From contig NW_026940900.1 of assembly GCF_032062105.1 (NCBI RefSeq), forward strand, positions 1 through 64,000: 64,000 nt of DNA, in the 5' to 3' direction. The DNA is from Saccostrea cucullata (lineage: Eukaryota). The number at the start of each line of letters is the position of its first letter. Positions within the stretch are counted from its first letter, which is position 1. A program made the position numbers and the translations under genes. The notes beneath the pieces were generated by a model. That model made no database searches and was not told the DNA's origin. It saw only the letters and a list, made by a program, of their open reading frames with translations. Below, piece by piece: positions 6,171-19,398 of this stretch.

Positions 6171-9100
6171 TTATGGTTTTGTGAACACATGGACTCTTTG
6201 AAGTCCACTCCCTCTGTAGTGTTGTTTCCAGTTAGTGGCGAGATACGGGTATCTTATTTTTCCATAATATCGTCCACCATTATATCCAATATAGCCTTTT
6301 CCATTATCATACATTACTCCTATAGTCAGCGATCCCCCTTTCTTTGTAACACACCATGCCCTGGCGATTGCTATGATATCTCCCCAAGGATTAAGTCCAT
6401 CGCCATATCTACCTAGTCCAGAATGTTCCACAGAGCTGAATGTTACCACAGCGTCAAATTCACCAAGTTTATTGTTCAGAAACGCCTTGCTAAATTCTCT
6501 AGGAGTGAAAGTTTTAATTTTTGGATGTAGGGATTTAATTTCTCCATATTCAAGAGTTACAACTTCTTTTGCTCCAGCCTCCAATACGCATGCCTCAACC
6601 CATGGATTCTCAGACCCTATAACTAAGACGCGTCCACCTTTGATGCCAAGAGCATGCCGCATCCCATCTCTTAACGCGTTTGTTTCGGAAATTCCATAAT
6701 TTCCTCCTAAAGCCCCTCTCTTTGCCAGCGAGACCATTTGTTCTACGCTTGCTTTTGTCCATACTGGCGTTCTAGCCTTTTGGGCAAAGTATGGATTGTT
6801 AAAATAATAATCTGATACTGGCAGCCGAAAATTCATTGTAAAATCCTTGAGAAGTTTTTTTGGAATCTTTTTTGTTGCCACTTTCAAACCATGCCCTTTA
6901 ATATCAATGTATTCATTTCTGAAAATTGCTATACAGTTTATTGGTGCCGTAACATGGTTAAAATACGGACCTGGAGTGCCAGGCCGTGACGTATTGCATA
7001 GTTGCCCACAGTCGCTTCGTATTACTTCTATTTCGGCATACGGTATACCATCAGGACCTTTAGGAAGAGGATTATATTTCCTGTAGGTTTCTGTTCGTGG
7101 AACAGGATCGAAGATGGGAGGGCTTTTTATGTACTGATCCCAATGGTTTTGCCACACGAAAAACATGAAACTGGCCATAATAACAAGAATTCCCAGCAAG
7201 CTGCATTTATTTCTTGAGACTTCTGTGATGGTTGCAATTCTGAAATGGAAAGGAAAATAATTATATAATTGAAACATGGTTTTGGTTTGGTATTTTGAGC
7301 CTCATTGTGTGAAAGTTTTCATGCTACCTTGTATATAAAATGTAATGGTCTTGTTTCTTAAAGGTAACACACTATGCAGATCGAAAAGGAAATGTATATT
7401 GATATTACATGAAGTTGACGTTTAAAAATCTTTTGCTAAATATTAGCATGTTTCGTACCCTATTTTCCCATAATTTTCACATAATTTTTATTGATTTAAT
7501 TTTTGGTGTTGGATTTTTATTCAAAGGTTCTTTTGCTGAAAATGAATATTTTTTTAATTGATTATCGACTGGGCAATATCTATCACAATAGTGAGACTTG
7601 TCCCTAAATAAAATATTAAATGGGGAAAATGTCTTGTGTTAAAATTCAAATATCTGTACATGTATAATAACTTTCTCTTTAATTTACATCTGACAGCCAT
7701 CTGGAGTTGAGGGGCAACTAGTAAAAAAACTTCTATGCAAATTTTGATCAGAAATAGATAACTTAAACCTTTCGCTAAGGCGAACAAAAAACCAGATGTA
7801 TGCTAAATTTTATTTGCCAGAAGAATGAAAAATGAAGTCGTCGTTTAATCAACCCAATATTGAGTGATTGGTGCTATGATCATATCAGTTTCTCCAATTT
7901 CATGGATCACAATCTATTCCCCATTTTCTGCAGTGACGATGTGGAGTATCGTTATTTACATTCAAATTTTCCCTGAAATGAATTTAGACACTGTGTTGTA
8001 ATAATAAAGTATGAAATGACCAAGAGTCATGTTTTGTCGACCTTGATGGATTGTATATTGTTTAACTCCCTCTCGAGAATTTCTAACTCACATTCTAACC
8101 ACTGCACCACGCGGGCGACATGTCGACCTTGAAGTAAAACTTCAAACTTTACTATGATTTATTACCATATCTGTAAGGCTGAGCGTATAGAAACTAATCC
8201 ATTACACAATACCAAGGCGGGTCGAGTTAAGTTAAGATCTCTGAAAGAAATTACCTCGTTATATTTTTTTACGTGTTGCAGTGGTAGAAAAAAAAATATT
8301 AACTGTGCCTTGCACAGTAAAGATGGTAAACACAATAAACTGTTGTGATTTGATAGGGGTATTAAAAGTTGCTAACTCTAAACCATGCACAAACATTTCT
8401 CTGCTGATCATGATCAGCCATAGCAAGTTTTTTCTACGTAAATTGGACATTCATGGTCGGTTTCAAAAGTCGTAAGAATGTTTTTTTTAAAGAAGATTGG
8501 CACGTTAAAATCTCAAATCGGCACTGAAAAATGATTCAAGTTAGATTAGTTCTTGACACATTACAACATTGGATAATAATATTTCTTGTGAATAAACCTT
8601 GTGAAGAAAATAAGGATGGCCAGTAAGACTCATGTGAGCACTGTGACCGATAGGCCTTTAGATTAATTTTGTTCTTGTATGTGCATGTGTCTTGTATCAG
8701 ATCATCTGATTAAAATAATTAATTCAACCACTTAATGTTAAAATCCGTTTCTTGGTTATGCAAGTACTTAACCTCCCATTGTGTTATGCCATTATATCCT
8801 GCTATATATATTAAAAATACTGAACGGAACTTATAGTCATCTATAGCTACATTCATTTCTTTTGACAGATGAGAAAGATGAATAGAGTCCTTAAGCTACC
8901 AATTGTTTTCACACACCTTAAATATATGGATGAATATACAGATGGACGGAATACTAAAAAAAACTGATTGACAGATAATCAAATGCATTTGAAAATTCAT
9001 TTTCACTGTCGAAAAAAAAGCAATTTATACAGGTATTTGAAACTTATAAATGTAACTAGTATTCACTAAAATTTGGTTGTTGAATCTTTAAATTATGTTA

Positions 9101-9330
9101 GATTAATCCCTCTTTGTGTTTAGTAGGAGCAAGTGAATGTCATATAAAGGTATCGTTAGCATTTTATCCTCGGACTCAATCGTATAAAGCGATGAGAATT
9201 GTTCCAAAGCCACATAATTTTTAATAAATAAGAGAAATATAAGGAAAATGTATCTAAGTTCAGTGTTGACAAAATACAATGGAAAAAATATGAATTAAAA
9301 AAATAAATACCTTGATGATGAAATATTCAT
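6171..9330 (-). CDS. DUF268-family SAM-dependent methyltransferase-like type II membrane protein, copy 1. Coding exons 9330-9311 and 7239-6171
   Basis: ATG AAT ATT TCA TCA TCA AG|gtattt ... ttccatttcag|A ATT GCA gives MNISSSRIAT, then the hydrophobic anchor CSLLGILVIMASFMFFVW. Motifs VLVIGSENPWVE, VVTLEY, FDAVVTFSSVEHSGLGRYGD and KKGGSLTIGV are typical of DUF268. Confidence 0.85.
8047..8120 (-). mobile_element. Internally deleted tRNA-SINE (both ends kept) with 12-bp TSD; second copy at ~17549-17622
   Basis: 5' end GTCGCCCGCGTGGTGCAGTGGTTAGAA is joined to 3' end AATTCTCGAGAGGGA...CAATC. TSD TGTCGACCTTGA at 8035-8046 and 8121-8132. Confidence 0.75.
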
Positions 9331-19300: not shown

Positions 19301-19398
19301 AGAAATATAAGGAAAATGTATCTAAGTTCAGTGTTAACAAAATACAAAGGAAAAAATATGAATTAAAAAACTAAATACCTTGATGATGAAATATTCAT
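14694..19398 (-). CDS. DUF268-family methyltransferase-like type II membrane protein, copy 2. Coding exons 19398-19379 and 15759-14694
   Basis: Same structure as copy 1 with an intact ORF. About 9 substitutions and one codon fewer (DKGHG vs DIKGHG). Confidence 0.85.
16354..17334. mobile_element. Complete HINE (Helentron-associated; CvA/pearl-like) with Cg170-like 166-bp satellite units
   Basis: Subterminal inverted repeats GCTCACCTGAG / CTCAGGTGAGC and hairpin GGCCCATGGGCC. About 166-bp units at 16525, 16691, 16856 and 17022, plus a GACG/GACA microsatellite. Inserted in an A-run; empty site at ~7830 in copy 1. Confidence 0.9.
18383..19033 (-). mobile_element. Solo LTR (~651 bp), present only in copy 2
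   Basis: Ends TGTGAACC...GGTTTACA (TG..CA with inverted repeat). TATAAATA followed by a pyrimidine-rich R-like region on the minus strand. Absent at ~8965 in copy 1. TSD is not clean. Confidence 0.7.

Follow-up and report, generated by a model that had tools for sequence, protein, structure and literature searches.

The first 64,000 nucleotides of contig NW_026940900.1 of the oyster Saccostrea cucullata (assembly GCF_032062105.1; this whole stretch is the window in what follows) carry two neighbouring minus-strand genes for proteins of the DUF268 family, and we propose, from their sequence, a structural model and the company kept by their relatives, that these two proteins are probably Golgi glycan O-methyltransferases. 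For the DUF268 family at large we regard O-methylation of glycans as likely, with somewhat more confidence than for the window copies themselves. The idea came from a first reading made from the DNA letters (the sequence-only reading), and it has gained from our analysis a class I S-adenosylmethionine (SAM) methyltransferase fold, a predicted type II membrane topology and relatives that are fused to, or encoded beside, glycosyltransferases; activity, acceptor and Golgi residence stay at the level of prediction. Searches of the literature, which mostly covered journals open without subscription, returned no link of DUF268 to glycan methylation and no named animal glycan O-methyltransferase.

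Both genes consist of two coding exons with GT/AG intron ends and open frames of 362 (copy 1) and 361 (copy 2) amino acids, and both proteins start with MNISSSRIAT (Table 1). Pfam DUF268 (PF03269) matches them over profile positions 5-136 of 176 with 97.5 and 97.4 bits (cut-off 25; E 1e-27) and is the sole Pfam family found in either at E ≤ 0.1; the closest named relatives come from Saccostrea, Ostrea, Crassostrea and Mytilus. The splice of copy 1 (7239/9311) is present in two raw reads and one contig from the RNA of a related organism, reads that are mostly less than 95% alike and so speak to transcription of an orthologue only and give no expression level for the window copies. The sequence-only reading had counted two intact genes, and frames and splice ends are indeed open in both, but the pair is one recent tandem duplication event, about 97% identical, and not two independent genes. 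By self-BLAST the two tandem units are 94.5-97% identical, with 3112-7832 matching 11643-16358 at 96.7% and 776-2628 matching 9803-11647 at 97.0%, and 9 of the 16 substitutions that separate copy 1 from copy 2 alter a residue.

The short N-terminus, single hydrophobic segment and proline-rich stem that had been described for these proteins were borne out by hydropathy and by proline count, the topology itself being predicted. A short basic N-terminus precedes one hydrophobic segment, residues 19-37, with a Kyte-Doolittle value of 2.05 against at most 0.93 in the remainder of the protein, and is followed by a stem region with 11 prolines in residues 44-100. The layout of a type II Golgi enzyme given in the available text of PMC7614267 (basic N-terminus, hydrophobic segment, stem and C-terminal catalytic domain in 300-600 amino acids) is matched by the sequence. 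Among the full-length relatives, 92 of the 102 near and 77 of the 113 distant ones also have an N-terminal hydrophobic segment, and four cysteines are conserved at 90% or more in a 145-row alignment of the family, whereas most of the 43 viral relatives have neither the N-terminal anchor nor the cysteine-bearing segment. This pattern would suit a domain that is lumenal and disulfide-bonded in eukaryotes but soluble in viruses.

Modelling of the last 276 residues on the 145-row alignment gave a structure of seven-stranded Rossmann order (predicted local distance difference test score, pLDDT, 96.8; predicted template modelling score, pTM, 0.94). When this model was compared with 48,161 solved chains, each of the best 50 matches was, or contained, a class I SAM-methyltransferase domain (Z 13.3-11.2), the top match having a root mean square deviation of 2.8 over 152 residues, and Foldseek, which the sequence-only reading had suggested, and a second fold comparison had the same outcome. 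A viral fold library returned generic methyltransferases only, and a sequence search of solved structures with DUF268 gave no real match. Characterised glycan O-methyltransferases were also considered as kin by fold and none stood out, RebM, AtmM and NodS being tied with unrelated enzymes, a result that is neutral for kinship.

The motifs quoted in the sequence-only reading are all present, and the family motifs GSxxPWxE, (E/D)Y, SSxEHxGLGRYGD and PxGD are found in both window copies, which retain all seven invariant columns of the alignment. The glycine after strand 1 is invariant and lies in a motif I of the form GSxxPWxE; the acid after strand 2 (model E151) is Glu or Asp in 143 of 144 relatives; and the loop after strand 4, SSxEHxGLGRYGD, the predicted active-site loop, is conserved from oysters to viruses. 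In the hairpin after strand 5, which carries an N-x-H-R motif in the family, the window copies keep the Asn and the Arg.

We looked for indications of substrate in the relatives of these proteins, which amount to 2,616 clusters at 50% identity. Among the 50 relatives longer than 622 amino acids, mostly metagenome proteins, 32 carry a second Pfam family: a glycosyltransferase in 17 (GT11 in 9, GT2 in 3, GT31 in 3 and others in 2), another methyltransferase in 17, and one or the other in 30. A separate scan of 38 long relatives, partly the same proteins, gave the same picture, and DUF268 is fused to FkbM in 15 of the 120 closest relatives. Gene neighbourhoods were taken from 43 viral loci (35 after removal of 8 near-duplicates) and from 80 of 147 prokaryote loci. 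A glycosyltransferase, nucleoside diphosphate (NDP)-sugar or polysaccharide enzyme is fused to DUF268 or lies within two open reading frames (ORFs) of it at 22 of the 35 viral loci. GT11 accounts for 13, and GT10 for 4, of the 130 ORFs beside viral DUF268, compared with GT11 in 1 of 98 ORFs beside FkbM genes (among the best 25 of 45 families) and in none of the 90 counted beside RNase III genes, a count that excludes 7 long ORFs. Counted per locus, among loci less than 70% identical and with the gene within 1.5 kb, a GT10 or GT11 gene accompanies DUF268 at 13 of 28 viral and 16 of 71 prokaryote loci, FkbM at 1 of 25 and RNase III at 0 of 11 (Fisher p 5e-4 for viral DUF268 versus FkbM, the loci being related to one another). 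The direct prokaryote neighbours (n=132; best 25 of 103 families) are headed by NDP-sugar epimerase/dehydratase (8), FkbM (6), GT11 (5) and GT2, GT10 and GT25 (4 each), and 3 of 13 long prokaryote DUF268 proteins are fused to glycosyltransferases. Because its relatives so often adjoin or are fused to glycosyltransferases, DUF268 is likely a glycan enzyme, and the family context points to glycans, especially fucose.

One viral contig of 310,762 bases brings many of these partners together, with DUF268, an MFS_5 transporter of SAMT-1 type, a GT31-FkbM-GT11 polyprotein, an epimerase and a GT21 (L021:549-14408). This contig is of giant-virus type and the cluster is Golgi-like in content; DUF268 there is in two frames, the polyprotein has 1467 amino acids (GT31-FkbM-methyltransferase-GT11), and a transporter-like ORF with no Pfam match is also present. 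Many of the prokaryote DUF268 genes (L121-L200) come from environmental Chlamydiae and related genomes, often with an N-terminal hydrophobic segment.

In the mechanism that we envisage, the DUF268 protein would be anchored in the Golgi membrane by residues 19-37 with its domain in the lumen, SAM would enter through a SAMT-1/MFS_5 transporter, and a GT11-type enzyme would add alpha-1,2-fucose. The DUF268 domain would then move the methyl group from SAM to a hydroxyl of the fucose or of a neighbouring terminal sugar, presumably by way of its conserved Glu-His/Arg/Asp loop, and so cap the chain. The acceptor would most naturally be fucose or the adjacent sugar on a fucosylated end, such as that of the oyster blood-group-A-like antigen, and any glycoconjugate passing through the Golgi could serve as substrate. 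Provided that the family does O-methylate glycans, we put fucose as the acceptor at about an even chance. The oyster genome has a match to MFS_5, to which the proposed Golgi SAM transporter SAMT-1 belongs and which the available text of 10.1101/2021.07.06.451061 ties to Golgi SAM import.

The published background agrees with such an activity in these animals. N-glycans of Crassostrea gigas and Ostrea edulis carry 3-O-Me-GalNAc, 3- or 4-O-Me-Fuc and Me-Man (PMC10301044, in the parts available), methylated mollusc glycans are the subject of a review (PMC8699351, likewise in part), and the word methyltransferase is not used in the main text of two mollusc glycan papers. For nematodes, the accessible sections of PMC6422873 describe methylation of alpha-1,2-fucose or mannose by methyltransferases that are unknown, and those of PMC7614267 place Caenorhabditis elegans DUF268 genes in glycogene clusters that further contain glycosyltransferases, potential methyltransferases and NDP-sugar transporters, call the DUF268 products possible Golgi proteins and state that the fucose-modifying methyltransferase remains to be identified. 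A passage of PMC2853384 lists the DUF268 domain only.

Several observations weigh against our proposal. The fold points to a SAM enzyme and not to a substrate, because the tied matches span N-, O- and C-methyltransferases acting on substrates of all kinds. Textbook motif I reads D/E-x-G-x-G-x-G, and the GSxxPW of DUF268 differs from it and is non-canonical. Hydropathy is equally compatible with a cleaved signal peptide at residues 19-37, and 9 of 11 C. elegans DUF268 members are counted with a signal peptide in the available text of PMC3534327. The comparison of viral DUF268 with FkbM loci used GT10 and GT11 hidden Markov models seeded from DUF268 neighbours and an FkbM control that is one subfamily, and 51 of 71 prokaryote DUF268 loci, counted without a prokaryote control, have no fucosyltransferase-family gene within 4 kb. 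Of the 42 GT11 matches in this oyster genome, none shares a contig with DUF268, and at least 53 FkbM and at least 7 Methyltransf_22 matches provide rival candidates for glycan methylation. C. virginica has DUF268 (P0087), and according to the Discussion of PMC10301044, as far as available and citing other work, no methylated fucose has been reported from that species, which counts against a fucose-only role or is a matter of tissue. The hairpin after strand 5 departs from the family in both window copies, with Gly at model position 236, where 135 of 144 relatives have Asp or Glu, and Gly again at position 243, where 104 of 144 have His; copy 1 in addition has lost two prolines and gained a residue at sites kept in the paralogues shown.

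These last changes bear on the window copies in particular, as the glycines may mean a changed specificity or a reduced activity. It is conceivable, though unlikely, that the family O-methylates glycans and the window copies are weakened or dead pseudo-enzymes under birth-and-death turnover, as the two hairpin glycines, the three further odd changes in copy 1 and the share of substitutions that change a residue would allow. The same would be in keeping with the state of the genome copies, since 4 of the 7 others are stopped, split or truncated (C8531:3428-6037; C15497:28167-29208; C6149:1944-2714; C13007:10530-11300): one is split by a satellite-like repeat of about 1.5 kb, one has a stop, and in two the first 97 exon residues are missing in the stretches fetched. 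Against this, the frames and splice sites in the window are intact and every invariant column is kept; 7 of the 16 substitutions are silent, and the replacements appear to be fewer than neutral drift would give. The His at 243 is usual rather than defining, as 10 of the 24 close relatives and 30 of the 120 distant ones have another residue there, and its exchange for Gly, Asp or Ala includes named Ostrea, Saccostrea and Crassostrea proteins.

An alternative that we also rate as improbable is that the fold is used otherwise, to methylate a small molecule, a lipid or a protein or to transfer another SAM-derived group. Fold neighbours that include small-molecule N-methyltransferases, the carboxymethyl transferase CmoB and spermine synthase, the atypical motif I and the many prokaryote loci with no glycan genes would all suit it. 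The fusion of 30 of the 32 multi-domain relatives to glycosyltransferases or other methyltransferases, a fucosyltransferase neighbourhood far above two controls and the predicted lumenal topology argue instead for the glycan O-methyltransferase that we propose.

The wider genome holds at least nine DUF268 places on seven contigs. Its GT11 (at least 42), FkbM and Methyltransf_22 matches are mostly long open frames, often in tandem, and form a pool of candidate glycan-tailoring genes; an FkbM match 62 kb from the broken DUF268 copy on C15497 was not taken as evidence. A FastTree of 227 core domains (231 less 4 dropped for their short length, with half of the prokaryote sequences and 20 of the 120 closest matches included) unites 14 bivalve rows in one clade (support 97) with an environmental sister group (89). 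Taxon look-up for 30 relatives yielded Paulinella, a eukaryote, and one 'bacterium' as the named organisms, and the clusters nearest to DUF268 in the ESM Atlas are from nematodes, rotifers and giant viruses. A query for C. gigas orthologues with the N-terminal part of C. virginica P0087 returned 8 proteins and missed known close relatives. The tree is neutral on a horizontal origin of the bivalve DUF268 clade.

A broader account would join these strands, and we offer it tentatively, as one that is rather doubtful in its entirety. DUF268 proteins would be the missing fucose O-methyltransferases of animals, capping alpha-1,2-fucosylated ends in nematodes and bivalves after GT11 has acted and with SAM supplied through SAMT-1. 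The hairpin (His versus Gly, Asp or Ala) would set the 3-O or 4-O position of the methyl group, which differs between oyster species, and the bivalve clade, with its intronless catalytic exon and its environmental and giant-virus-like sister group, may have been acquired horizontally.

The second DUF268 copy might in principle be an artefact of assembly, with two haplotypes of one gene placed end to end, and this we consider highly unlikely. Haplotypes of one oyster can differ enough to account for 97% identity, the assembly is big and broken into many pieces (1.17 Gb, 23,869 contigs) and some paralogue contigs look allelic; the two units nevertheless differ by kilobase insertions and by truncation of a vWA exon at their junction, a tandem DUF268 pair also occurs on another contig (C9716), and one is probably present in Ostrea edulis too, judging by adjacent locus numbers. 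Such an artefact, if real, would leave the argument on function unchanged. Of the two units, copy 2 alone has an insertion of about 1 kb in its intron (16350-17335), a ~170-base repeat array with a GACA/GACG microsatellite that is presumably a non-autonomous Helentron-type element of oysters. Tandem repeats of about 170 bases also lie directly 3' of both DUF268 copies (5488-6026 and 14011-14549) and occupy the equal position in the copies on C13007, C15497, C6149 and C8531.

The sequence-only reading had further suggested that the DUF268 proteins act on the products of the glycoprotein genes around them, or else that the linkage is a by-product of rearrangement. The first suggestion found no support, because 0 of 7 paralogues have vWA, EGF or somatomedin-B matches (12 queries, E<1e-3, in 18 stretches of 10 kb, 180 kb in all) and the flanking vWA pieces are duplication debris; the second fits, vWA exons having been copied together with the DUF268 gene and left broken at its flanks. 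As judged from the paralogues in the genome, the vWA/EGF linkage is private to this locus, and DUF268 probably came to lie among vWA/EGF exons incidentally, through insertion and tandem duplication. The neighbours had also been described as rich in N-glycan sequons and EGF motifs: the motifs exist, with CLSGPC at 449 on the plus strand and CKNGGTC at 35188 on the minus strand, but both lie outside 6171-19398, and the sequons of the vWA exons are in modest excess (20 observed against 14.2 expected from composition, in 6 segments). That the DUF268 genes are a functional part of a vWA/EGF glycoprotein cluster and methylate its products specifically is very improbable: DUF268 does lie between vWA exons, where three genes or gene ends of somatomedin-B/EGF/vWA type occur, and both a DUF268 exon and a pair of vWA exons are represented in the RNA of a related organism, but the adjoining vWA pieces are broken, the second DUF268 copy stems from the same duplication and, to our knowledge, Golgi enzymes are not usually linked to the genes of their substrates.

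Table 1. Coordinates of the DUF268 gene pair, its predicted protein elements and the surrounding duplication in the window
Feature	Position	Strand	Basis or remark
DUF268 copy 1, coding exon 1	9311..9330	-	MNISSS and first 2 bases of an Arg codon; spliced to 7239 in RNA of a related organism
DUF268 copy 1, coding exon 2	6171..7239	-	anchor, stem, catalytic domain and stop, as predicted
DUF268 copy 2, coding exon 1	19379..19398	-	20 bases
DUF268 copy 2, coding exon 2	14694..15759	-	open frame, splice ends
Predicted transmembrane or signal segment, residues 19-37 of copy 1	7149..7205	-	Kyte-Doolittle 2.05
Strand 1 and degenerate SAM motif I (VLVIGS, then xxPWxE)	6612..6629	-	model G129, W134 and E136 invariant in 145 rows
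Family signature after strand 4 (SSVEHSGLGRYGD), predicted active-site loop	6399..6437	-	conservation in family
Hairpin after strand 5	6261..6308	-	Gly in both copies at model 236 (mostly Asp) and 243 (mostly His)
First unit of tandem segmental duplication	776..9519		self-BLAST
Second unit of tandem segmental duplication	9803..19585		repeat insertion at about 16350-17335 in DUF268 intron
Broken duplicate of two vWA exons	3453..5122	-	tblastn: stops, internal deletion
5'-truncated duplicate of the two vWA exons at 607-2067	9802..11094	+	first 40 exon residues missing
Broken duplicate of two vWA exons	11984..13649	-	tblastn: stops, internal deletion

The remainder of the window holds two head-to-head genes for secreted proteins (25177-35803 on the minus and 37150-52469 on the plus strand) with, in this order, a signal, somatomedin-B, many single-exon EGF repeats and two vWA domains, the plus-strand gene having a further vWA at 38960, and the contig opens with the end of a third somatomedin-B/EGF/vWA gene (182-2067, plus strand). 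Satellite-like tandem arrays lie at 61714-62963 (period about 156 bases), an array also abundant on several DUF268 paralogue contigs, and at 55016-55679. By eye we noted fragments that resemble a reverse transcriptase of long interspersed nuclear element type (41247-42345, minus strand) and pieces of a Harbinger-type transposase (20062-20469 and 23075-23685, minus strand).

Glycans with O-methyl groups are characteristic of molluscs, nematodes and further invertebrates, and defence lectins recognise them as targets. In the available text of PMC10301044, methylation of oyster blood-group-A-like glycans is proposed to tune recognition by lectins and by norovirus, and if DUF268 methylates such glycans it would matter both for the immunity of oysters and for the safety of shellfish. 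As a locus it is unremarkable: a recent duplicate within a small and quickly turning gene set of a known family of unassigned function. With its fold, topology and predicted acceptor, the DUF268 lead makes a stated gap in invertebrate glycobiology testable, and taken together the sequence, modelling and family-context results indicate that DUF268 proteins are likely among the enzymes that methylate animal sugar chains.

Among known systems, the FkbM/Methyltransf_21 family, which includes the rhizobial fucose 2-O-methyltransferase NoeI, resembles DUF268 in its class I fold, is a frequent fusion partner and neighbour of DUF268 and is expanded in the oyster genome. It differs in sequence, with an hhalign probability of 0.1% against DUF268 (8 viral FkbM rows) and no Pfam match at E ≤ 0.1, and it is a rival or partner candidate for glycan methylation in oysters. 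The plant GXM and AGM proteins are DUF579 Golgi polysaccharide O-methyltransferases whose acceptor is glucuronic acid of xylan or arabinogalactan. Together with the GoSAMT transporters they offer the likeness of proposed anchored Golgi enzymes fed SAM by an MFS_5 transporter (10.1101/2021.07.06.451061, in the part available); they differ from DUF268 in family, the window proteins having no DUF579 match at E ≤ 0.1. Caenorhabditis DUF268 proteins share with those of the window the family, the N-terminal hydrophobic segment and the size (361-362 amino acids in the window against 310-380 in the 11 C. elegans members; PMC3534327, as far as available), and in the accessible text of PMC7614267 DUF268 is listed apart from the 'potential methyltransferases'. 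Within the family, the window copies belong to the bivalve clade and have Gly in place of the hairpin His and Asp. In the chlorovirus PBCV-1, according to the available sections of PMC9614988, domain 3 of A064R and A061L are class I SAM enzymes that O-methylate the terminal rhamnose, a 6-deoxyhexose, of a glycoprotein glycan, and the A064R domain is fused to the glycosyltransferases that build its acceptor, much as DUF268 is fused to GT11. By that description, on which the comparison is made, the two enzymes differ in being viral, in having no Golgi anchor, in using a rhamnose acceptor and in not being assigned to DUF268. The value of the present finding lies in a functional lead, in which DUF268 is a candidate animal counterpart of these plant and viral glycan O-methyltransferases.

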